From Oscillospiraceae bacterium (lineage in GTDB: Bacteria; Bacillota; Clostridia; Oscillospirales; Acutalibacteraceae): a stretch of 64,000 nt of DNA. The stretch is taken from contig CADAUV010000003.1 in assembly GCA_902791235.1 (NCBI GenBank), positions 9,016 through 73,015 of the forward strand, read 5' to 3'. A program made the position numbers and the translations under genes. Under the pieces are notes generated by a model. The model did no database searches and was not told the DNA's origin. It saw nothing but the letters and a program-made list of their open reading frames with translations. Below are positions 1,058 to 28,829 of this stretch, one piece after another (within the stretch, counting starts at the first letter, position 1; each line of letters starts with the position of its first letter).

Positions 1058-1085
1058 TCATAAAGTTATAATTGAGGTGAAAATC

Positions 1086-2069
1086 GTGAAAAGTGCTATT
1101 CAATATATTCAAAGCGTTTTTACGGATGTAGCAAATATAGAAAATGCGAATTTCAATAATATTCCAATTTATCTTTTTGAAAAGTTTAGTTTTACAAATT
1201 TTGAGTTATTGGGAAACAAATGTATATTAGCTGAATACAAAGAGAAACAGGAATTATTCATTGACACTATTAGCAAAGATCTTAAACAAATAAATAGGTT
1301 TACAAACAGATACCCTGTATTTGTATTTGAAGGGCTTAGATTAAAGCAAAGGGAAAGCTTAATCAGCAGCAAAATCCCTTTTGTAGTCCCTGAAACACAG
1401 ATATATATTCCGTATCCTCCAATATCCTTATCCGAGTTTGAGGCAAGAGAAAGAGTTGAAACAGAAAAGTTCAAAAAATCCACACAGGTAATTTTTGCCT
1501 ATTTGCTTCTCAACGATATTGATACCATAAACGCTCACAGGCTTGCAGAGCAACTTGGTTATTCTGTAACAACTGCTAACCGTGCGTTAAACGAGCTTGT
1601 TGATAAAGGAGTATTGCTTCAAAGTAGTAACGGCACAAGAAAGAAGTACACTATCCCGAGCAAAAAAGAGTATTGGGAGCAGGGCAAGCAATTTCTGTTT
1701 AATCCAATTACAGATTCGTTCTTGCTTTTAAAAAGCAATGTAAGTATTGGCGATGAGCGTTTATTAAAATCGGGAGATACTGCTCTGTGTGAATATTCAG
1801 ACCATTTTGATGAAAATACAAATTATGAAAAGCATTATGCTTGTTATACAAACGATTTCCACGAATTGCACAAGCACGGATATCCGAAAACAATAGAGCT
1901 TTCAATGTCAAGCTTTGTTTGTGTTGAAAGTTTGGTATACAATCCTGCATTATTATCAAAGGATGATAAAATTGATGCTGTTACTTTGTATGCTCAGTAT
2001 CTTGACAAGCATGATGAAAGAGCAGAGATTGCGCTTGATGAAATTATGGAGGAAATAATCAATGGTTAG
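1086..2069 (+). CDS. Winged-HTH protein, probable AbiEi-like type IV antitoxin/regulator
   Basis: wHTH INAHRLAEQLGYSVTTANRALNELVDKG; C-terminal D..TLY...DERAE; overlaps the downstream nucleotidyltransferase; GTG at 1086 follows GAGGTG RBS (ORF track start 1077). Confidence 0.6.
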   Translation: MKSAIQYIQSVFTDVANIENANFNNIPIYLFEKFSFTNFELLGNKCILAEYKEKQELFIDTISKDLKQINRFTNRYPVFVFEGLRLKQRESLISSKIPFVVPETQIYIPYPPISLSEFEARERVETEKFKKSTQVIFAYLLLNDIDTINAHRLAEQLGYSVTTANRALNELVDKGVLLQSSNGTRKKYTIPSKKEYWEQGKQFLFNPITDSFLLLKSNVSIGDERLLKSGDTALCEYSDHFDENTNYEKHYACYTNDFHELHKHGYPKTIELSMSSFVCVESLVYNPALLSKDDKIDAVTLYAQYLDKHDERAEIALDEIMEEIING

Positions 2070-2790
2070 AGGTTTAGATAAATTCAAAGAGTTTTTTGAG
2101 AATTACGGTAGCAATTATGTATTAATAGGTGGTACGGCTTGCTCTATCATCTTTGATGAAATCGGTCTTGATTTTAGAGCTACAAAGGATTTAGATATTG
2201 TTCTTATTATTGAAAATCTGAATGATGATTTTGCAAATCGGCTTTGGGAATTCATAAAGGCAGCGGGATACCAAATTGAAGAAGGCAAGAATAAGAAATT
2301 CTATCGCTTCAATAACCCCAAGGACCGTTCATATCCAAAAATGATTGAATTATTTTCGAGAAATAACAACATCGAACTTGTACCTGACGCTCATTTGGAG
2401 CCGATACATATTTCAGATGATGTTTCAAGCTTATCTGCTATTTTGCTTAATGATGACTATTATAATCTTTTACTTGAAGGAAAAAGAACCATTGACGGAT
2501 ATAGCGTTCTTGATGAAAAGTTTCTTATTCCTTTCAAAGCAAAAGCTTGGTGCGAAATGACCGATAGGCAAGAAAACGGTGAAGAAGGTTTAAGTAAACA
2601 TATTAAAAAGCATTTTAGGGATGTTTACAGACTTTCGCGTATCATTGTCCCAACAGACAAGGTTTCCCTTGACGGAATGGTCCACAGCGATATGGAGCGT
2701 TTTATTAGCAACATTCTCACAACTGAAAACAGATCGGATGATATTAACTATCAGGAAATGTATGATTTACTGACCAATGTTTATCTATAA
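2062..2790 (+). CDS. AbiEii-like nucleotidyltransferase toxin
   Basis: LIGGTAC...RATKDLDIV motif and C-terminal KxKA...KHFRDVY, typical of the AbiEii/DUF1814 superfamily. Confidence 0.7.
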   Translation: MVRGLDKFKEFFENYGSNYVLIGGTACSIIFDEIGLDFRATKDLDIVLIIENLNDDFANRLWEFIKAAGYQIEEGKNKKFYRFNNPKDRSYPKMIELFSRNNNIELVPDAHLEPIHISDDVSSLSAILLNDDYYNLLLEGKRTIDGYSVLDEKFLIPFKAKAWCEMTDRQENGEEGLSKHIKKHFRDVYRLSRIIVPTDKVSLDGMVHSDMERFISNILTTENRSDDINYQEMYDLLTNVYL

Positions 2791-11770: not shown

Positions 11771-12676
11771 TTATCTTTCCATGTCGTCATTGCTTCTGGC
11801 TTCTCTGTCCTTGTTAAGTTCAGAATAAACCTTTGTGCCGATTTCATTAACGCAATCTCTTGACATCGTGAGCTTTTCACGGATACCGTTGTTATCAAGG
11901 TCAGCCCACTCCTTAGGCGGCGAAGCAACATCGATGCCCTTCGTGTCGATACCGTACTTTCTGCAAAGCATATATGCCGCACACTTTGCAGGATAGAGCG
12001 CTTCGCTTCTGCTGTAAGAATCGCTGTTGTAGGCAATCTCTGCAAGAGAGAGTTCCTGTGCAACTGCCTGAAAGAGTTTTGTTGCGTCGCCGACATTCTC
12101 TCTGACAAGAAGCATATTACTTTCAGGCTCATAGTAAGCCGCAGCATTTTCAATCGGAATCTTGTCGGAGATTTCATAGTCAATCTGACTTGTTTCAAGC
12201 ATAGCCGAAACAATTTTTGCCGGATCGTGATTAACAGTAGGAGTATTCCTTCTGCGTGCATTGGTCTGTGAAATATCAAAGACTCTTTTCACATTGTAGG
12301 AAATACCGACAGAACCGTTTTCACGGGAGTATTCCTTCGGTTCAAGAATCATAAGGCTCTTTGAACCACGCTTAACGGTAACGCCCGTTTCGCTCCAATC
12401 CTTATAGTCCTTAAGCTGTGTCGCTTCGGGAAGCTGCTGCATAATGAGAACCGTGTTTGCAACGGAGTATCTGTCAAGTCTTGCCTGAGTATCAAGATAC
12501 TGCATAAAGCTTTCCGGACTCTGAAGAATGTTGTTGAAGCCTTCGTCAATCATTGAGTAGGCGGCATTACGCTCTTCTTCCTTTTTGAGAGCGTATTCCT
12601 CCTTTGTCATCTGCTGACGGGGTTCATTTGATTTGTTTCTGTTGAAGCCGTTACGCTTCGGATGGTAGTTAGCCAT
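11771..12676 (-). CDS. ArdC-N/LtrC-like ssDNA-binding antirestriction-type protein
   Basis: YSVANTVLIMQQ.PEAT...W...G..VKRG...VFDISQT motif; degenerate protease-like segment AVAQELS. Confidence 0.7.
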   Translation of the reverse strand: MANYHPKRNGFNRNKSNEPRQQMTKEEYALKKEEERNAAYSMIDEGFNNILQSPESFMQYLDTQARLDRYSVANTVLIMQQLPEATQLKDYKDWSETGVTVKRGSKSLMILEPKEYSRENGSVGISYNVKRVFDISQTNARRRNTPTVNHDPAKIVSAMLETSQIDYEISDKIPIENAAAYYEPESNMLLVRENVGDATKLFQAVAQELSLAEIAYNSDSYSRSEALYPAKCAAYMLCRKYGIDTKGIDVASPPKEWADLDNNGIREKLTMSRDCVNEIGTKVYSELNKDREARSNDDMER

Positions 12677-18270: not shown

Positions 18271-18927
18271 TCACAATTCAATGGGTGAAAAAATATATAG
18301 GATAAAACGCTTACCAAAGTTCGTTAAGTGATAACCATCTCCGAACTCTCTTTTTGACTCTATGGAATTAGTAATAATACCATATCTCATCATTTCAGGA
18401 ATAATAACTTTACAATAATTTGAATCAAATTCTTTCCATTTAGAATAAATATAATCATAAATATCAGTAAACCATATTGTTTCTTTACAATCTCTTAAAT
18501 AGAAAAGATGCAATATTTTTATTTGGTCTACAACTAACTCTCCAAGCAATTTATAGAAATAATCTATCTCATTGAAGTTTGGAGCTTCGTCATTAGCTGC
18601 ATTAATGAGTATATTTCTATATCCATTAATTCTTTCTGTTTTATCTTCCTCTAATATTGATTTAAATGTTTTAAGCAAAATATTATGATACTCTTCTGAA
18701 TTTAATATTCTTTGTGTAATCAAGTTTGGAAGTGATTCTAAGTCATTCGACAAATCATTTAAAAATTTGTCTCTTCTTTTTTGTTCTGTACTTGGAAGGT
18801 ACTTATCAAACAGTAAGGAAAGCGTCCCACCCGCAACAGGAATCATGCTTACGGAGGCGGCGATAGTATTTCTTATAAGTTCATCTCTAACAACTTTATG
18901 ATCATACAAATTGCTATCTATACACAT
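18271..18927 (-). CDS. DUF4393/Abi-alpha-like cargo protein, copy A
   Basis: Aligns end to end with 17583..18224; LTNFGKRF motif; extended -10 TGTTATAAT upstream at ~18979-18987. Confidence 0.5.
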   Translation of the reverse strand: MCIDSNLYDHKVVRDELIRNTIAASVSMIPVAGGTLSLLFDKYLPSTEQKRRDKFLNDLSNDLESLPNLITQRILNSEEYHNILLKTFKSILEEDKTERINGYRNILINAANDEAPNFNEIDYFYKLLGELVVDQIKILHLFYLRDCKETIWFTDIYDYIYSKWKEFDSNYCKVIIPEMMRYGIITNSIESKREFGDGYHLTNFGKRFILYIFSPIEL

Positions 18928-19013: not shown

Positions 19014-22000
19014 TTATCGTTCATCTCTGTCCTTGTCATCTCTGACGGGTGTGCTTTCATCCTGTTCGGGCTCCTCATCAACCATTTCGTTTTCACGCTT
19101 GTCAACATTAAGAAGGGCGTTAAGTTCACGGAGCCTTGCTTCCTTTTGCTTTAACTCCTCATCCTTTGCAAAGGGCTTTTCAAGCTGTTCCTTTGCGTTT
19201 GCAAGCTGCGTTTCGGTGGTATCACGAAGTGCTTTTGTCCTTGTGAGCATATCCTCCAAGCCGTCAATCACATTATCAATACGGGTAATGTTACCGATTG
19301 CGTCAGTACCGAGGATACCTTCGTGAGAAATTGTACCCTTAATCGTTACCCTGTGCTGATGTGAGAACGGCTCATAATGCACCGAGAGTTTGAAACCTCT
19401 GTACTCGCCAAGAGGATAAATCTGTGTGTCGGGAAGCGTTTTACAAACATCAATGATTGCCTGACCTGCGTCTGCTTTTTCGGAATAAGGAACACCGTTT
19501 ACTACCATACCGACAAAGGTATCGCCGATAGATTTCGGGTTTTTCTTGGCAGTAACAATATCCTTTTCAAGCCCTGCAATACGCTCGTCATATTCGGCAA
19601 TCTTCTGCGGAAATTCCTTTAACACTTTGTCCTCAAGGGAGTAACGCTCCGAAAGATAATTTGATTTAAGCAGGCGTAATTTCTGCACCTGAATATCCAA
19701 ATCCATCTTCTCTTTGATATACGGATTACCCGTAGCAAGCATTTTGATTTCAGCATAAGACAGAGCCGTTTCGTCAATATCCTCTGCGGAACGCACCGGA
19801 GATTTAGAACTCATTATCTGACTTGCGAATTTTTGCTTACCCTCAACAAGCTGATAAAGGTATGCGTCAAAGGTCTGTTCGGTTACATAGCGGAAGATTT
19901 CAACCTCTTCGTTGCTGTTGCCCTGACGGATAATTCTGCCTGAACGCTGTTCCAAATCGGAAGGACGCCAAGGACAATCAAGGTCGTGCAGAGCAATTAA
20001 TCTGTCCTGAACATTGGTACCTGCACCCATCTTTTGCGTTGAGCCGAGCAGCACTCGGATTTCACCTTTACGCACTTTCTTAAACATTTCCGCTTTCTGC
20101 ACCTCCGTTTTAGCATCGTGTATAAAGGCAATCTCGCTTTCGGGAATACCTTTTGCAATCAGCTTATCTCGGATGTCAGTATAGACGGAAAAGGTGTCAG
20201 ACTTCGGCGTTGAGAGGTCGCAGAATACTAACTGCGCTGATTTCTTGTCTGCGTTATCCTGCCATATCTGGAAGATGTTATCGGTACAAGCATTAACCTT
20301 GCTGCCGTCAAAGTCGGGAAGCAGGGGGTCAATCATACGCTGGTCAAGTGCAAGCTTTCTGCCGTCATTGGTGATAACGAGCATATTGTCATCCCACGAT
20401 TTAACAACGCCGCTTCGCACCTTTTCTGCTCTTTCGGATAGTGATTCAACCATCTTTTGCTGTATCTCTGACGGCTTAACAGCGACATTATGGTAGTTTG
20501 CTTTCGGAACCGTAATACTGTCAGTAAGCATATCGGCTGTTTTAATATCCGCAACCTCTTTGAACATTGACATCAGTTCGGGGAGATTGTAGAAACGAGC
20601 AAAGCGGGTTTTCGCTCTGTATCCCGTTCCTTCGGGCGTTAATTCAACTGCTGTTACGGTTTCGCCAAAGGTGGATGCCCACGCATCAAAGTGCTGCAAA
20701 TCGTGACGGCGCAGGGTTTCATACTGCAAGTATCTCTGTATGGTATATAACTCAACCATAGAGTTTGAGATGGGAGTTCCCGTTGCAAACACGGTGCCTT
20801 TGCCGCCCGTGATTTCGTCAAGATAGCGGCACTTCATAAACAGGTCGCTTGACTTTTGTGCTTCTGTTTGAGCAATACCTCCGACATTTCTCATCTTGGT
20901 ATAAAGGAAAAGGTTTTTGTAGTAATGGCTCTCGTCAATGAAAAGACGGTCAACGCCGAGTTCCTCAAAGGTAACAACGTCATCCTTGCGGGTCTGGTCG
21001 TTGAGCTTTTTGAGCCTTGCTTCAAGACTCTTTTGTGTCTTTTTCATCTGCTTGACGGTAAAGTTTTCAGCATTGTTCCGCTTTGCTTCTTCAATACCTC
21101 TGACAATATCGTTAATCTGTTCCTCAATGAGATATATCTGCCGTCCAACGCTAACAGGTATCTTTTCAAACTGCGAATGACCGATGATAACTGCATCGTA
21201 ATCGCCCGTAGCAATCTTACCGCAGAAGGTCTTTCTGTTCTTTGTTTCAAAGTCCTTTTTGGTAGCGACAAGGATATTAGCAGACGGATACAGCGTTAAA
21301 TATTCCGCCGCCCATTGCTCTGTTAAATGATTCGGGACAACAAATAAAGACTTGGTACATAAGCCAAGTCTTTTGCTCTCCTGTGCTGCAGCGACCATTT
21401 CAAAGGTTTTGCCTGCACCGACTGCGTGTGCAAGGAGTGTATTGCCGCCGTAAAGTATATGAGCAACAGCGTTTTTCTGATGCGGTCTTAAAGAGATTTC
21501 GGGATTCATACCGCTAAAGGTAATATGGCTTCCGTCATATTCACGAGGTCGGATAGAATTGAATTTGTCATTGTAAAGACGGGTGAGTTCCGTTCGCCTG
21601 TCAGGGTCGTTCCATATCCAATCCTTAAACGCCTGCTTAATGAGTTCCTGCTTTGCCTGTGCGATAGCCGTTTCCTTTTTGTTAAGGACCGGCGTTCGCT
21701 TTCCGTTATCGTCAATCTCATAATCAAAGATACGCACATCCTTCAGGTTGAGGGTTTGTTCAATGATTTTGTAAGCATTGATACGGGTAGTACCGTAGGT
21801 GCTGTTTGCTTTAACATTACTCTTATCGGAGGACTTACCCGTAATGTTCCACTCACCTGTATAGTGCGAATAGTTCACTTTGATTTTGTAGGAGTAATAA
21901 TACGGCGGGTCAAGCAGTTCAAAGATGAATTGCTGAATATATTTTGTCGGCAGCCAAGTAGCGCCAAGTCTGACATCAATCTCGCTTGCCGTTAAGTCCT

Positions 22001-25000
22001 TCGGCTGCACCTTGCGTAGTGCTTCTGCATTAACCTCAAAGGCAGGATTAACCTTTGCCATATTTTCAGCCACACGCAGTTTAGCACGGACATCACCTGA
22101 CAGATATTCGTCAGCCATAAGATATTTCTTTTCGGCTGGTCTGTCCTCGGAATACATCGGGTTAAGAAAGATAATGCCTGTTAAGTCATCTGCGATTTTT
22201 TCCTCTGTTTTACCCGTAAGCTGCATCATATATTCTACGTCAAGTTCTGCCTTTTCGCCCATTGAAACTGCAACTGCTTCAATAGAGGTGTCAACGCTTG
22301 TAACAGGAATATGGGGTTTGATAGTTCGCTTTGTGAACATATCCGCCTTGCGTTCGAGGTTGCCCTCATCATCAAGCACCTCTAATGCAGTAAGCAGATA
22401 GTAGGAGCCGTCATCGGCAAAAGCGCTCTTGTTAGCACGGGAATTGATAAGTCCGTACTTTGCTGTAAACCCGTCGTATAGCTCGTTTAAGTTCTGCTGT
22501 TCGGACTGTATTTCTTCTTCGGGATAGTCCTCGGTTTGCAGTTCTATGAGCCGTCTGACGCTCTGCCTGATATTGATTAAGCCTTTGATACGGTTTTCAG
22601 CAGTCGCCGACACCTTAACCTCTTTCATCATAGAGTTTTCACGATAAAAGATTGTGCCGTCAACAACGGTATATGAGAAATTGCGTACTGTCGGGTCAGC
22701 AGGTAAATACTGACGGTCATCCTCAATTTCTTCCTCGTCGATTTCATACTCTGTAATTTCACCCTTAATATTACGGATGGCAATATTGAGTTGCTCCTCA
22801 AGCGTTCTGTCCTCAAACGGCTCACAAGTCGGTTCGGGACCGAATCTGCCTGATTTCATTACCATATTACCCATAATCATTTCAGGGTGGTCAACAAAGT
22901 ATTTATTCATACGGATACCGTCTTCTGTATTATCAAGCATTAACCAGTCGGGTTCCTCGTTGACAATTCTATCTCTTTTCTGAAGGATAAGAATATCCGA
23001 GGTAACATCTGTTCCGGCATTACCCTTAAAGGTATCGTTAGGAAGTCTGATAGCGCCGAGCAGGTCTGCTCTCTGTGCGATATATCTTCGCACATTGGAG
23101 TTTTCCTTATCCATTGTACCCATTGAGGTAACAAGCAGCATTACGCCGCCCGTTCTTAACTTATCAAGGGACTTTGCGAAAAAGTAATCGTGAATAAGGA
23201 AATTGTTTTTATCGTACCGCTTATCCGCAACCTTAAAATCACCGAAGGGTACATTGCCGACAACTGCGTCAAAGAATGAGTCGGGCAAGATTGCTTCCTC
23301 AAACGGCGAAGCAAGCACCGATGATTTCTGATATAACTGCTGTGCAATCTGTGCAGAAATACTGTCAAGCTCAATACCGTACATCTTGCTGTCCTTCATT
23401 GAGTCGGGAAGCATACCGATAAAGTTACCGATACCGCACGAAGGCTCAAGGATATTGCCCTGCTTAAATCCCAAGTTTTGAAGTGCCTTATACATCGCTG
23501 CAATAACTGTTTGAGGGGTATAGAAGGCGGTTAAGGTGCTTTCCATTGCTGCGTCATATTCTTCGGGAGAAAGAGCAACAATGAGTTCCTTGTATTCATC
23601 TGCCCAAGCGGAATTGTTCGGGTCAAACGCCTCTGGTATTCCGCCCCAACCGACATATTGCGACAAGATTTCCTGTTCTTCAGGCGTTGCAAATCTGCCT
23701 TCAAACTCACACTCTTTCAGCACATTAATCGCTTCCATATTTCTGCGGAAGCGTTCTTTTTTGCCTACACTCTCAATATCCTTTTCGGCAAAGTTGTAAT
23801 TGTGCCTTGCTTCAAGTGGTATTTCAGGGTGAAGGTCAAAGGTACGCACCTTTGATTTCGGCTGCTGCGGTGGTGCAGGGAGTATTTCAACAACAGGTTC
23901 TTCCTTTTCGGGCAGTAACGGGAATATATCCTCAATACGCTCTCTGCGAAAGATAGGAAAGCCTGCGTTTTCTGCAAAGGTAACATCACGCATTGAAACA
24001 TAGTCGCCCTTAACTTCTTCAATGATAAAGTGCGAGCCGTCAATGACAATTTCATCGCCAATCATATCCGAATGGTCAGGCTCCGCCTTATCTTCAAGCG
24101 TAGCCGTATGCTCCGTTAAGTCGTGAATCAGACTTTGTATTTCTTCAACACGGCTATAATCGGGAGTGTCAAAGGTCTGCTGTGCTTCGTGTGCGTCAAT
24201 GCTTCGTTCTGCAGCATAGTCTGAAAGATAACTGATAACGCCCTCACAAAAGGTTTTATCGTTAAGATGTTCAGACATAATTCTGATAGCATCTTCGTCT
24301 GTTTCGCCGATTTCAAGGTTATCAGCATAATCATAAAAGTCGGTATCCTTTGCAAAGGCAACAAGGCGCCCTGCAAGAGTGACCTCTTTATCTAACCCAA
24401 GACTTTCAAGATACTCAACTGCTTCTGCTTTGGTATCAAAGGCATGAACAAGGTTGTCGCTGTCAATATAGAAATCGTGCGTTTCATTATCAACGATTGC
24501 CCACTTTGTCCCTTCGCCCGAACTTTCATAACCGTAGTGAACAGTATAACGTCCGTAGTCTGCATCGCTGAATGTTTTGTTAAGACTTTCAACTATTTTT
24601 TCTAAATCTTTTGTAAAAACAAGATCGTCAAAGGAAATGTTTTCTAACACTTCATTGATTAACTCCTCAAGGCTGTCATAAGTGGTAACCTCCACTCTGT
24701 TACCGTCAAGAAACTGAACGACCTCAAAATGAACCAAATCAACATTAACATCAATCGTGTGCTTTCCATCCTCAGTTTCGGTTGTAGCCAGATTAACATT
24801 TGATAAGTTGCTGAAATCAGCACTGTCATCATAACCGAATTCTTCGTGTCGGTACTCATTGATTAACTGCTTTGCTCTTTCAAGGGGAGGAAGCTCCTGC
24901 GTTCTGCCTGGAGCGACAACCCTGTTGACTTCCTGACTTTCGGCAATCGCAACCTTATGACCATTAGCGACAAGGCGGGAAATATATGAATCAACAGCGT

Positions 25001-28000
25001 GAGCAGGTACACCACACATCGGGGTACGCTCTCCCGTTGCAGTATTAATTGTTCTGCCTGTCAGCACAAGGTCAAGTTCCTCTGCAACAACCTTTGCATT
25101 TTCGCCCATAACCTCATAGAAATCGCCGAGTCTTGAAAAGATAATGACATCGGGATACTGTGCTTTAAGCTGCGTATATGACTTCCATATCGGTGATATA
25201 CCGTCATCAACAAGTTCAGGCTCAACACCGTATTTCTTTGCATAGTCAAGCACACTATTGATAATGCGTTCATCAACGCTTAATCCCTCAACAAGTTTAC
25301 CGTCTGCACCGAAGGTTAGCGCCTCGTTAAGAAGAAACTGATACAATTCAGCGCCTTTCCACTTATTGCCGTCACTATCAGAAGCGACAATCGTATCACC
25401 TTCAAATTCAACAACCATATCGTCAATCTTACAAGCAGCAAGAAGGTTGTTTACGGCAATAAGTTCGGTTTCATCGGGATACATCAACTTATCAAGTTCA
25501 GCAACCACCTCGTTGTATGAGGGATACTGACGGAGAAAGTCAATGACGCCGCCATCGCCGTCACCAATATCCTGCCTTTCGGTATATGATTTACCGTCAG
25601 GCATATACAGAGTGAATTTCGTTTTAGCATAGCCTTGGTGAGCGTAATCATCATTTTCAAGAGCCTTTTCAAAGGAACCGTTACGCTCGATTTCGGCAGC
25701 CTTTTTCCGTATCCATTCTTCGTCTGCTTCTCTCATTAAGCGGTCAAATTCTGGAACGGTATAGCGTTTTCCGTCCTCAAAGCCTTCGTGTTCACTCCAT
25801 TCGCAGATGATATACGGCTCTGTTTCTTTAGGCGTTTCTTTTTCGGTTGGTTGTGAGAATTTAGTCGGTCTTGGTAACGATGCTTTCTGTTCAGGAACAG
25901 CATAGGGATGATACTCGCCGTTTTTGAAAGCAACAAAGTTGTCATATTGTTCCTGATGCCATTTGTAATCACGCTCGTTGCTCTTATCCATTAAGGTAAG
26001 TGCGTCAGACATCATACGGTCAATATCGTCAAGCGCCTGCGGATTATCAAGTTGCGCCTTAACCACCTTTTCTCTGTTATACGGCTCCGTGTCTGCTGAA
26101 AATGGCTTTGCGTATTCTTCGGGTGCAAGTTCAAAGAAATTCACAATCTCACTTGCAATAATATCCTTTTCAATGTCAGGTATCCTTTCAATTTCTTCGG
26201 GATAATAGTAGGTGTTTGCCTTTATCATCGTATCTATTCGCTTTGCAATATCGTTCCATTTCAGGAACACCTTTGCATAAGGCTCCATACTGTTACCGTG
26301 GCTGAACGAAATACCTTTGGCATCGTGATTTTCGCTGTCATTTCCATCACCAAAGCCGCCCGTTCCGTATTCATCCTTAAGCATTTTTATCCTATCCTGC
26401 AAATCGGGATGATTAACAAAATAGGTGTAAATTCTGTATTTACCGTACTGAACGGAAGAACCTCTACGGAGCAGCTTATTTATTTCATCGTTAGTAATGA
26501 AATACTGTCTGTCGGGGTTAAAGCCTGCCTGTGCTTTGAACGGCACTTTTTCAAGCGACATACCCTGCATTATTTCATATACATATTCGGGAGAATACTT
26601 GAAAGAATAACGAGGTAGTCCACTGATAGTTCCACGCCTGCGGTCATCCATAAACTCGATATAGTCGTTGTCAAGGTCATTAAAGGTATCGGGATTTGAT
26701 AATGCACCCTTAACGATTTCAACCTGATCAGGATAGCCATAAACTCCGTTTAATGCTTCGTATAAAGACGGGAAGCAACGCTCCTTACTGTCCTTATCCA
26801 TATCACGAAGGAAAAAGACTATTCTTTCGGCAACATACGAAAGTTCATAGTCATCAATCTTATCAAGCTGATATTGCGGCATAAATCTTCCGAGGTCAAG
26901 CAGTTCGCGAATACGCTTCGCCGCCTGTTTCCAAGTCAGATGTGTTGCAGATGACTTTTGAGCTGTATTGCCTTTGGCGATATTGATACCGTTCTCGTCA
27001 TACCAAACGGACATTTGCTCTCCGTCAAAGAAGAAGCCTGCGCCGTTGGTACCGTAATGGGACTTAAGGAATTTAGCATTGTATTCCGTTCCTCTGTCCC
27101 TGCGGAAGAACATAGCAATATCAAGCGTGCTGTTTCTGTCATTTGCACCGATACATAACGCTTCATCAATAATTTGCTGTGAAATACCAAAGTCTGCAAA
27201 AAAGGATACCTGTTCAGGCTCTGCTACTGTCTGTTCGGCTGGTACTGCATTATCAATAAAATCGAAAAAACCAATCTGTGCAGATTCAGGCTCTTTCTTT
27301 TCGGGCTGATAGTATTTGCCTTCCTTGATGAGTTGGTCTATAAGTTCAGCGACTAAATTCCACGAAAAAAGGGACTCCTTTGTACGAGATTTATAAGTTC
27401 CCTCGTATAAATAAAGTCCCTCTGGTTCATAGTGGTATCCCACTTCAACGCCGTCAACATTAAACTGTTTCAGTAATCCTCCGTAAACGGTTGAGATATA
27501 TCTTCCTTTTTCATCAGTATTCCTTAATTCGCTCCAACGCTGTACCAAAAATTCCTTTCGATGCGCCAAATCGTCGTTAGGATTTTGAAGCATAAACAGA
27601 ATTTTATCTTCATCTGTAAACGGCGGTAATTCTTTGCTTACCTCTGATAAATCACTTCGTTCATGACTATCTCCTGAACTCTCTGCTTCAGGTTGTTCAT
27701 GCCCTGTACCCAAGTCATCGGATTTTCCGCTTTCAGTTTCTCCGTCAAGCCCTCTTGAGCTGCCATCGTTGTCATCAACTGTTCCTCCATCTGCTCGGCT
27801 CTGTCCTGAGCCTCTTTCAGATGTTGGTCGAGCTGGCATTGCAGTTTCAGGCTCGTGTAATACGGCTTGTGGTGGTTCATCAGAAATTCTCTGCGAGCTT
27901 CTGCGTAACGACCAAAACGAATCGTCTTGTCCTGTGGGAGAAGCAGGTTCGGAATCTGAACTCCACCTACCGTCGTGTAACTGATTGGCTGTGTCATAGT

Positions 28001-28829
28001 CAGCACTCCTTTCAATATTTTTTTCGCTTTCAGTATATTCATCTTTGCTTTTTTCTGCAATTATGCGATTTTCTTTTTGCAGAGTAAGAACGGTTTTTCC
28101 TATTTCAGTCAGTCCCATTTCTGCAATATCGCTTGTTGCTTCGCCAAGAACGGAAAGTGCTTCGGGTGTGTTGAAATTAACAATGCCCTGAAAATCCTCT
28201 CTGTCAAAAAGATTTGAGGTTTCAACTCCCAAACGGGTAAGCATCATATATGCTACGCTGTTTTGAACAAGCACTCTCAATTCTTTCTCAATGGCGTCAT
28301 CACCTAAATCCTCAAGAAAGCTATCTGCTTTTGCATAATTGGTGAGTTCGGAGATATAGTCGGGAAGATTATCCATAGCCATATTCTCGGCAGCAGAAAA
28401 GACGGCATTAATAATATCTTCTTTCCTTTCAAGTTCGCCGAAGTTATCCTCTAAAACGGATATGACCTCTGCTTCATATTCCGCTTTGTATTCCCACATA
28501 GGAACAGGCTTTGAAAACTCTGTTTCGTGTGTATCGGAAATATCAAAGTAGTATTTAAGCCGCTGGTTTTCTCCTCTGACATTATCAAAAACGGCGATAC
28601 CCTTTGCACCGCCGTTTACCCATCTGCCAAAGCGGTTATTCCATTTGTCAAATTCAAGAACAGCGGTTGCATCCGGTCTTTGAGCAAAGATTAAAAGCTG
28701 CTCGTCAAACGGGAGTTTGAAGTTTCTGCAAGCCGAAAAAAGAAAGGACTGCCAGTTTTCAGGCGATTTTGTGATTTCTTTTAAGGTATCATCAAAGACG
28801 AATTTAATAAATTCATATTTGTTTGCCAT
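19014..28829 (-). CDS. Giant polyvalent DarB-like protein: ArdC-N-like, LPD25-like, MutS domain I, N6-adenine methyltransferase and SNF2 helicase
   Basis: ILEPSCGIGNF and VGNVPFG methylase motifs; HAVGAGKT, DESH, TGTP, QRSGRIIRQGN helicase motifs; RLGDFYE MutS-I motif; CEWSEH...GYAKTKF. Confidence 0.9.
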   Translation of the reverse strand: MANKYEFIKFVFDDTLKEITKSPENWQSFLFSACRNFKLPFDEQLLIFAQRPDATAVLEFDKWNNRFGRWVNGGAKGIAVFDNVRGENQRLKYYFDISDTHETEFSKPVPMWEYKAEYEAEVISVLEDNFGELERKEDIINAVFSAAENMAMDNLPDYISELTNYAKADSFLEDLGDDAIEKELRVLVQNSVAYMMLTRLGVETSNLFDREDFQGIVNFNTPEALSVLGEATSDIAEMGLTEIGKTVLTLQKENRIIAEKSKDEYTESEKNIERSADYDTANQLHDGRWSSDSEPASPTGQDDSFWSLRRSSQRISDEPPQAVLHEPETAMPARPTSERGSGQSRADGGTVDDNDGSSRGLDGETESGKSDDLGTGHEQPEAESSGDSHERSDLSEVSKELPPFTDEDKILFMLQNPNDDLAHRKEFLVQRWSELRNTDEKGRYISTVYGGLLKQFNVDGVEVGYHYEPEGLYLYEGTYKSRTKESLFSWNLVAELIDQLIKEGKYYQPEKKEPESAQIGFFDFIDNAVPAEQTVAEPEQVSFFADFGISQQIIDEALCIGANDRNSTLDIAMFFRRDRGTEYNAKFLKSHYGTNGAGFFFDGEQMSVWYDENGINIAKGNTAQKSSATHLTWKQAAKRIRELLDLGRFMPQYQLDKIDDYELSYVAERIVFFLRDMDKDSKERCFPSLYEALNGVYGYPDQVEIVKGALSNPDTFNDLDNDYIEFMDDRRRGTISGLPRYSFKYSPEYVYEIMQGMSLEKVPFKAQAGFNPDRQYFITNDEINKLLRRGSSVQYGKYRIYTYFVNHPDLQDRIKMLKDEYGTGGFGDGNDSENHDAKGISFSHGNSMEPYAKVFLKWNDIAKRIDTMIKANTYYYPEEIERIPDIEKDIIASEIVNFFELAPEEYAKPFSADTEPYNREKVVKAQLDNPQALDDIDRMMSDALTLMDKSNERDYKWHQEQYDNFVAFKNGEYHPYAVPEQKASLPRPTKFSQPTEKETPKETEPYIICEWSEHEGFEDGKRYTVPEFDRLMREADEEWIRKKAAEIERNGSFEKALENDDYAHQGYAKTKFTLYMPDGKSYTERQDIGDGDGGVIDFLRQYPSYNEVVAELDKLMYPDETELIAVNNLLAACKIDDMVVEFEGDTIVASDSDGNKWKGAELYQFLLNEALTFGADGKLVEGLSVDERIINSVLDYAKKYGVEPELVDDGISPIWKSYTQLKAQYPDVIIFSRLGDFYEVMGENAKVVAEELDLVLTGRTINTATGERTPMCGVPAHAVDSYISRLVANGHKVAIAESQEVNRVVAPGRTQELPPLERAKQLINEYRHEEFGYDDSADFSNLSNVNLATTETEDGKHTIDVNVDLVHFEVVQFLDGNRVEVTTYDSLEELINEVLENISFDDLVFTKDLEKIVESLNKTFSDADYGRYTVHYGYESSGEGTKWAIVDNETHDFYIDSDNLVHAFDTKAEAVEYLESLGLDKEVTLAGRLVAFAKDTDFYDYADNLEIGETDEDAIRIMSEHLNDKTFCEGVISYLSDYAAERSIDAHEAQQTFDTPDYSRVEEIQSLIHDLTEHTATLEDKAEPDHSDMIGDEIVIDGSHFIIEEVKGDYVSMRDVTFAENAGFPIFRRERIEDIFPLLPEKEEPVVEILPAPPQQPKSKVRTFDLHPEIPLEARHNYNFAEKDIESVGKKERFRRNMEAINVLKECEFEGRFATPEEQEILSQYVGWGGIPEAFDPNNSAWADEYKELIVALSPEEYDAAMESTLTAFYTPQTVIAAMYKALQNLGFKQGNILEPSCGIGNFIGMLPDSMKDSKMYGIELDSISAQIAQQLYQKSSVLASPFEEAILPDSFFDAVVGNVPFGDFKVADKRYDKNNFLIHDYFFAKSLDKLRTGGVMLLVTSMGTMDKENSNVRRYIAQRADLLGAIRLPNDTFKGNAGTDVTSDILILQKRDRIVNEEPDWLMLDNTEDGIRMNKYFVDHPEMIMGNMVMKSGRFGPEPTCEPFEDRTLEEQLNIAIRNIKGEITEYEIDEEEIEDDRQYLPADPTVRNFSYTVVDGTIFYRENSMMKEVKVSATAENRIKGLINIRQSVRRLIELQTEDYPEEEIQSEQQNLNELYDGFTAKYGLINSRANKSAFADDGSYYLLTALEVLDDEGNLERKADMFTKRTIKPHIPVTSVDTSIEAVAVSMGEKAELDVEYMMQLTGKTEEKIADDLTGIIFLNPMYSEDRPAEKKYLMADEYLSGDVRAKLRVAENMAKVNPAFEVNAEALRKVQPKDLTASEIDVRLGATWLPTKYIQQFIFELLDPPYYYSYKIKVNYSHYTGEWNITGKSSDKSNVKANSTYGTTRINAYKIIEQTLNLKDVRIFDYEIDDNGKRTPVLNKKETAIAQAKQELIKQAFKDWIWNDPDRRTELTRLYNDKFNSIRPREYDGSHITFSGMNPEISLRPHQKNAVAHILYGGNTLLAHAVGAGKTFEMVAAAQESKRLGLCTKSLFVVPNHLTEQWAAEYLTLYPSANILVATKKDFETKNRKTFCGKIATGDYDAVIIGHSQFEKIPVSVGRQIYLIEEQINDIVRGIEEAKRNNAENFTVKQMKKTQKSLEARLKKLNDQTRKDDVVTFEELGVDRLFIDESHYYKNLFLYTKMRNVGGIAQTEAQKSSDLFMKCRYLDEITGGKGTVFATGTPISNSMVELYTIQRYLQYETLRRHDLQHFDAWASTFGETVTAVELTPEGTGYRAKTRFARFYNLPELMSMFKEVADIKTADMLTDSITVPKANYHNVAVKPSEIQQKMVESLSERAEKVRSGVVKSWDDNMLVITNDGRKLALDQRMIDPLLPDFDGSKVNACTDNIFQIWQDNADKKSAQLVFCDLSTPKSDTFSVYTDIRDKLIAKGIPESEIAFIHDAKTEVQKAEMFKKVRKGEIRVLLGSTQKMGAGTNVQDRLIALHDLDCPWRPSDLEQRSGRIIRQGNSNEEVEIFRYVTEQTFDAYLYQLVEGKQKFASQIMSSKSPVRSAEDIDETALSYAEIKMLATGNPYIKEKMDLDIQVQKLRLLKSNYLSERYSLEDKVLKEFPQKIAEYDERIAGLEKDIVTAKKNPKSIGDTFVGMVVNGVPYSEKADAGQAIIDVCKTLPDTQIYPLGEYRGFKLSVHYEPFSHQHRVTIKGTISHEGILGTDAIGNITRIDNVIDGLEDMLTRTKALRDTTETQLANAKEQLEKPFAKDEELKQKEARLRELNALLNVDKRENEMVDEEPEQDESTPVRDDKDRDER
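27638..27997 (-). CDS. TnpV-family protein nested out of frame within the giant helicase gene
   Basis: Y..VGGVQIPNL...GRYA..R..FL..H...Y..L...AQEGLTEKLKAENPMTWVQGMNN...EIV..EVIY; RBS GAAAGGAG 8 nt before ATG 27997. Confidence 0.75.
   Translation of the reverse strand: MTQPISYTTVGGVQIPNLLLPQDKTIRFGRYAEARREFLMNHHKPYYTSLKLQCQLDQHLKEAQDRAEQMEEQLMTTMAAQEGLTEKLKAENPMTWVQGMNNLKQRVQEIVMNEVIYQR

Follow-up and report, generated by a model that had tools for sequence, protein, structure and literature searches.

The window analysed here, a 64,000-nt stretch of an Oscillospiraceae contig, carries on its minus strand a 9.8-kb gene for a giant helicase-methylase, and within this gene lies a second open frame that resembles tnpV, a small gene of mobile elements. 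The locus raises the question of whether the same bases encode two proteins and, if so, which of the two frames is constrained, how the arrangement arose and what the small protein does. The features on which the answer turns are the following.

19014..28829, minus strand: giant polyvalent DarB-like gene, 3,271 aa, the host frame (Pfam LPD25, MutS_I, Eco57I (weak), ResIII, SNF2-rel and Helicase_C)
28006..28013, minus strand: Shine-Dalgarno sequence GAAAGGAG, located 8 nt ahead of the ATG; the host frame reads it as E-R-S
27638..27997, minus strand: nested tnpV, 119 aa, +1 frame (Pfam match, purifying selection, folded model with pLDDT 84)
27636..27998, minus strand: host-frame reading of the tnpV bases, residues 278-398, a G/D/R/S/E-rich linker that is stop-free and apparently unconstrained in its amino acids

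The nested ORF runs from an ATG at 27997 to a TAA at 27640-27638 on the minus strand and contains 119 codons. It is completely enclosed, on the same strand, by the giant ORF of 3,271 codons (19014-28829) and begins 832 nt into it, which places it in the +1 frame relative to the host. Across tnpV, the host frame has no stops and the third frame has 15. A preliminary description, made from the sequence without database searches, had reported a 119-codon same-strand ORF in another frame with a ribosome-binding site (RBS) and full-length TnpV-family motifs. Both statements were borne out: GAAAGGAG precedes ATG 27997 by 8 nt, and the motifs IPNL, GRYA, AQEGLTEKLKAENPMTWVQGMNN and EVIY were all found in the 119-aa product. 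The Pfam search that it had proposed matched TnpV (PF14198) at E 8.2e-34 over profile positions 2-111 of 111, and the score of 116.4 bits, against a curated cut-off of 27, places the product in the family. The locus thus shows the full enclosure, the different frame and the intact host frame of same-strand nested genes of the comS type.

An open +1 frame alone is unremarkable, because resampling of codons with the host protein fixed leaves it open in 24% of cases at the window locus. Stop-free +1 runs of at least 110 codons numbered 25 among 97,261 downstream host codons, in the host genes of loci L086 (6 runs), L088, L117, L121 and others. Three features of the locus do go beyond chance, namely its match to the TnpV family, its conservation and its start signals.

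The relatives used to assess conservation were gathered by the start of the giant protein, not by TnpV, and came from 5 close loci, 151 family genomes and 401 class genomes; the family and class query partly included the linker and may favour linker-bearing loci, and weak matches were fetched too. Removal of 7 duplicate fetches and of 7 matches confined to the first 90 residues or fewer left 108 loci, of which 4 were cut at contig ends and 6 had a broken host frame. Among the 98 loci that remained, 94 contained a full-length tnpV with an RBS in the +1 frame; the other four were two 92-aa forms without the N-terminal hairpin, one locus broken in both frames and one without tnpV and linker. After 4 identical proteins had been removed, 90 nested proteins were aligned (alignment A1). 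All 90 ORFs matched Pfam TnpV, their lengths ranged from 113 to 157 codons, and the 90 distinct full-length loci span about 30 family labels. The nested frame therefore stays open in relatives, a point on which the preliminary description had staked its case. Outside the window's class, 11 of 21 TnpV loci were nested likewise, in 8 families. Plasmids from Streptococcus suis and Listeria monocytogenes are named cases, annotated in the host frame only.

Some loci depart from the common arrangement. L099 (and L098) has an intact 2,740-codon giant gene without tnpV or linker, in which the N-terminal domain abuts the next domain; since this intact gene lost both together, the linker looks dispensable. 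L074 has a truncated nested tnpV, at which the host frame ends, and a second copy some 150 nt beyond it. In L053, L124 and L125, tnpV is intact despite a stop in the giant frame within or soon after the overlap.

The two frames are under different kinds of selection. In close pairs, base variability at TnpV codon positions 1, 2 and 3 was 0.066, 0.052 and 0.160, respectively; that is, the TnpV third position is the most variable and the second position, which coincides with the host wobble position, the least. We sorted the substitutions of 27 disjoint close pairs by their effect on each frame. Those silent for TnpV only occurred at 0.187 per site (324 changes) and those silent for the host only at 0.022 per site (47 changes); doubly silent changes occurred at 0.179 per site, a rate resting on 15 changes only, and changes silent in neither frame at 0.017 per site (80 changes). 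TnpV-altering substitutions were about 8-fold rarer than silent ones. These rates (0.022 vs 0.179-0.187) indicate strong purifying selection on TnpV, as looked for in a nested gene, and host amino acids that are close to neutral. Codon conservation, compared in both frames as the preliminary description had suggested, follows the TnpV frame and not the helicase frame.

The host frame, for its part, contains no stop in the overlap, where 8.6 are expected when TnpV is fixed and codons are resampled, and the probability of zero stops is at most 0.01 in each of the 90 loci. The host-equivalent frame of 41 stand-alone tnpV genes (the set after dropping 5 broken or partial copies) contains 2-14 stops; in the source genome itself, three further tnpV genes, all stand-alone, have 6-8 stops in that frame vs 0 in the nested copy. 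G, D, R, S and E abound in the host reading, which has almost no aromatic residues, a pattern expected for a disordered linker. By these comparisons, the host frame appears to be selected only to remain stop-free. This fits the earlier view of the helicase frame as an open linker, and the wider proposal, dual coding in which the off-frame reading of tnpV serves as that linker, is supported by the sequence comparison and met no contrary result. We consider it nearly certain, on the sequence evidence, that the tnpV locus is dual coding.

Public annotation treats such loci in two ways. The expectation that gene callers drop the nested gene holds for one RefSeq record, which has the giant gene only; it fails for another, from Monoglobus, in which the annotation includes tnpV but cuts the giant gene short, placing its start over 1,000 codons inside an open frame of 2,554 codons. 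Taken at face value, the Monoglobus record would mean that tnpV is the sole gene here and that the giant ORF consists of two genes separated by a stretch that is open by chance. However, this record has the whole 2,554-aa frame open, and the probability of at most 0.01 for zero stops in each of the 90 loci largely refutes such a split, to which we give next to no credence.

The nested gene also has candidate initiation signals of its own, namely GAAAGGAG, the ATG and a predicted promoter pattern (TTGCAG-17-TATACT, 28060-28032).

28055..28060, minus strand: hexamer TTGCAG, predicted to be the -35 element of an internal promoter for tnpV, with TTG at the exact 17-nt spacing in relatives
28032..28037, minus strand: predicted -10 hexamer TATACT

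The pattern, defined as a TTG-led -35 plus a -10 within one mismatch of TATAAT, was found ahead of tnpV in 45 of 90 loci and in 18 of 39 sequence clusters, the other half being without it, vs 44 of 1,800 and 16 of 1,760 control windows (1-2%). Where a -10 was present (54 loci), a spacer of exactly 17 nt with TTG occurred in 43. An extended -10 was not enriched ahead of tnpV (1 of 90 loci), and a consensus promoter scanner, which needs 4 of 6 matches at -35, found no minus-strand promoter or terminator. The nested start codon was ATG in 88 of 90 loci. An RBS precedes the nested start in 89 of 90 loci, a count that is partly circular because starts were chosen partly by their RBS; a comparable RBS stands ahead of 244 of 5,269 other +1-frame ATGs. 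Three metatranscriptome runs contained only 5-6% of the sequence words, and a few short RNA contigs covered parts of tnpV and the following DNA; these are unstranded and give no level, and DNA is possibly present in them, so that they count for nothing as a sign of expression.

The enclosing protein is composed of several recognisable parts.

28038..28829, minus strand: conserved N-terminal domain, residues 1-264, putatively ArdC-N-like (profile match to a Listeria gene)
25509..25829, minus strand: LPD25 domain, residues 1001-1107 (Pfam)
24927..25193, minus strand: MutS-I domain, residues 1213-1301 (Pfam)
22605..23816, minus strand: LPD36 and adenine methyltransferase, residues 1672-2075, with GWGG at 1727 and NVPF at 1859
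19920..21497, minus strand: SNF2-type helicase core, residues 2445-2970 (Pfam)

The N-terminal domain (residues 1-264) had no Pfam match at E<=1, and its profile scored 98 bits on a Listeria plasmid gene with the RefSeq name ArdC-like ssDNA-binding. The protein has the marks of the DarB-like group: the LPD36 GXGU motif (GWGG at 1727), an NPP(Y/F)-type methylase motif (NVPF at 1859) and an SNF2 helicase (DESH at 2632). Downstream of the giant gene lie relaxase, VirD4-like, VirB4-like, PrgI and pilin genes, which indicate a conjugative element, so that the gene is encoded beside a conjugation system, as DarB-like genes are beside conjugation or packaging systems. The DarB-like methylase-SNF2 proteins described previously likewise combine LPD36, an adenine methylase and an SNF2 helicase with further fused domains (PMC5512222); the window copy stands beside a type IV secretion system. 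The main text of that paper contains no TnpV, DUF1896 or 'overlap'. Elsewhere in the window, we observed a second ArdC-N gene of the conjugative element (11771-12676, minus strand), a weak Abi_alpha-like gene directly after the giant gene (18271-18927, minus strand) and an HTH plus AbiEii-like pair (1077-2790, plus strand).

The alignment-based model of TnpV consists of a beta-hairpin followed by five helices (pLDDT 84, pTM 0.62) and supersedes a single-sequence fold (pLDDT 71, pTM 0.32). Foldseek found no match to this model in the PDB at E<=0.001, a PDB sequence search returned nothing meaningful, a protein atlas search returned nothing beyond TnpV, and the PHROGs search gave one family, of unknown function. 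The top match of a wide fold search was PG0816 (2apl; Z 6.5, rmsd 1.9, 61 aligned), which is within the background for helical models and which we take to be the DUF1896 structure. Comparison by hhalign of TnpV with a profile of 22 DUF1896 proteins gave a probability of 9% and E 0.004; a shallow DUF1896 alignment gave no signal against TnpV, none of the 90 nested proteins matched PF08989 (DUF1896), and DUF1896 was not found among the 301 Bacillota genomes searched.

The genomic position of DUF1896 is similar. In two of five Bacteroidota records, the Emticicia and Runella plasmids, a separate DUF1896 gene lies directly upstream of the methylase-helicase gene, and two other Bacteroidota methylase-helicase genes of the five had no small gene directly upstream. 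DUF1896 of Bacteroidota conjugative elements is thus, like TnpV, small, helical and directly upstream of the same module (2 of 5 records); however, it is a separate gene with an 11-nt overlap with the next gene and an extra C-terminal half, whereas TnpV is nested. On these comparisons the link between the two families is weak, and their homology is at most putative. On the Flavobacterium plasmid, a 120-aa gene without a Pfam family and with a faint TnpV-like motif (L176:5455-5817) lies directly ahead of the methylase-helicase; profile comparison gave a probability of 1%.

The best match to TnpV among viral models (probability 0.99, TM 0.49, E 0.4) is presumably orf33 of phage PBC5, to judge by its length. 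The best match of the TnpV profile in 50 kb of the PBC5 record was the end of orf33, a region in which a DarB-like frame already runs open in the same relative frame. The overlap of orf33 with the DarB-like frame in PBC5 (L214:26155-26731) extends over about 190 codons, and the latter frame is open well upstream of its annotated start; either a sequencing slip or a real split may account for this. The TnpV-like stretch of PBC5 retrieved 21 phage records, most of the matches lying beneath giant DarB-like, methylase or PLxRFG genes. In all three proteobacterial phages that we checked, the TnpV look-alike was a separate, unannotated, +1-nested ORF with its own start, located 164-341 host residues before the LPD36 motif. 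The similarity of the look-alike to TnpV is remote (probability 33%, E 4e-4).

The PBC5 stretch, as the in-frame end of an upstream giant ORF, is what would be expected if the +1 frame were reached by ribosomal frameshifting, giving a fusion of the N-terminal domain with TnpV instead of or besides free TnpV. The conserved RBS, the ATG (88 of 90 loci) and the promoter pattern point to independent initiation, however, and in the relative Atu_ph08 one continuous giant gene contains a small ORF with its own start; we therefore regard frameshifting as very improbable.

Stand-alone copies bear on the history of tnpV. Of the 52 TnpV matches examined, a set from which the nested copies fetched earlier were excluded, 46 were not surrounded by a giant gene and had mixed neighbours, so TnpV often travels without its proposed partner. 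A large serine recombinase was near 3 of 17 stand-alone loci screened. DUF6809 genes directly adjoined tnpV in 3 of the 17 (L155, L160 and L167), and a pPIWI-RE gene also neighboured the L155 copy. In a quick, unrooted tree of 123 columns, nested and stand-alone forms clustered, with 6 changes vs 32 in shuffles. Two stand-alone copies (L166:566-913 and L168:4995-5342), with a TTGACA-17-TAAAAT pattern of their own and a decayed host frame, fell within a nested clade (support 98), a sign that at least one copy has escaped from nesting.

This escape, together with the widest tree divergence being covered by nested copies, fits a de novo origin, in which the giant gene already had its linker, tnpV was overprinted on that linker and every stand-alone copy derives from the nested gene. 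We think such an origin unlikely. TnpV is folded in the model and conserved, whereas the host reading is unconstrained; some Bacteroidota have a separate small gene at the same position; and the tree is unrooted, short (123 columns) and quick.

The stand-alone copies also suit a different possibility, in which both frames are coding but TnpV has a role unconnected with the giant protein, such as regulating excision, transfer or host defence, and the nesting is a relic of the gene fusion. Many of these copies lie away from giant genes, 3 of 17 screened are near a large serine recombinase, the gene has its own predicted promoter, and the two copies in the nested clade, with their own -35/-10 pattern, show that a copy can leave and persist. 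TnpV has moreover been postulated to be an Xis-like excision factor (PMC3158075). On the other hand, a review has the Tn4451 recombinase excising without a directionality factor (PMC5704250), and Bacillota elements, proteobacterial phages and some Bacteroidota plasmids all keep such a small gene before the methylase module despite differing N-terminal domains. With regard to an Xis-like winged helix, the model is a beta-hairpin plus five helices, and no excisionase was among the fold matches listed, which does not exclude one. We consider an independent TnpV the main alternative, serious but somewhat doubtful.

Pairwise TnpV identity tracks that of the N-terminal domain (rho 0.80) and of the methylase (rho 0.74) in 25 loci, as expected for long joint descent; relatedness alone yields such a correlation, so it shows no binding. 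A stop can arise in the host frame only where a TnpV codon ends in T, and every such codon has a synonym. The host frame can thus be opened by silent changes alone, and its use in both elements and phages does not by itself imply a common origin.

The account that we prefer for the observed nesting, its conservation and the two kinds of selection is that tnpV is the older gene, that the giant gene grew through it, and that TnpV is a partner of the giant protein; judged from sequence, we give this account as a whole a probability of roughly 0.55. The tnpV gene would originally have been an ordinary gene immediately upstream of an LPD36-methylase-SNF2 module. The module would then have acquired its N-terminal domain by read-through of tnpV in the sole alternative frame that could be opened without altering TnpV, and the off-frame reading would have turned into a floppy linker. 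TnpV, produced in the donor cell from its own predicted promoter, would bind the giant protein and keep it inactive or competent for delivery until the giant protein reaches the new cell together with the transferred DNA, and stand-alone copies on mobilisable elements may act in trans on the giant protein of a helper element.

DarB-like proteins are thought to travel with DNA and to protect it against restriction (PMC5512222), as is known for DarB of P1, and in P1 a small neighbour, Ulx, is required together with DarB against EcoB and EcoK, according to PMC12810830. The ulx gene lies downstream of darB, and the analogy is functional only; as a sequence relative of TnpV, Ulx was rejected (hhalign probability 0.2%). 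For a small helical protein that is kept with the module whether delivery is by virion or by conjugation, the best reading is a chaperone or regulator, and TnpV is likely to be such a small helper of a giant anti-restriction-type enzyme. More tentatively, TnpV, DUF1896 and the hidden phage ORFs may form one ancient partner family of DarB-like anti-restriction enzymes, nested across Bacillota elements and proteobacterial phages, from which parasitic mobilisable elements would repeatedly have taken the gene.

TnpV of the Tn4451/Tn6104 type is, like the window copy, a full-length PF14198 member on Bacillota mobile elements. Its gene is described in the relevant passages as a separate gene (PMC3158075, PMC9815147), whereas the window copy lies wholly inside another gene, out of frame. 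Excerpts of the literature call TnpV a transposase on elements inserted into snf2 (PMC9815147) or give it as of unknown function (PMC10782964). Our literature search, with supplements and subscription journals outside its scope, returned no description of tnpV nesting. Few same-strand nested bacterial genes have been characterised, according to the consulted part of PMC11230408; they include comS in srfA of Bacillus subtilis and gndA in gnd of E. coli, which are likewise out of frame, and GndA has 36 aa and a proposed de novo origin (same source). Unlike GndA, tnpV has 113-157 codons, stand-alone homologues, a predicted promoter of its own, an apparently older frame and a spread over about 30 families. 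Rz1 of lambdoid phages is a small +1-frame gene embedded in the larger Rz, and the products, both similarly small membrane lysis proteins, cooperate. Compared with Rz/Rz1, the tnpV host gene is 9.8 kb, and a partnership of the two products would be only a proposal.

The nesting of tnpV is unusual in its length, its spread and which frame is constrained. It is long, conserved over the whole phylum and subject to measurable selection, and the constrained frame is the nested one, while the big gene supplies a throw-away reading; the locus is a natural model for dual coding that arises via gene fusion. In public annotation, either tnpV is missing or the giant gene is cut short, and insertions or knock-outs in such snf2 genes may affect two proteins. 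The proposed partnership offers a testable role for TnpV, an orphan of many mobilisable elements. If the single ancient family is real, tnpV and its relatives would be among the most widespread nested genes in prokaryotes, and mobilisable elements would have taken the gene to borrow or control the anti-restriction enzyme of their helper.
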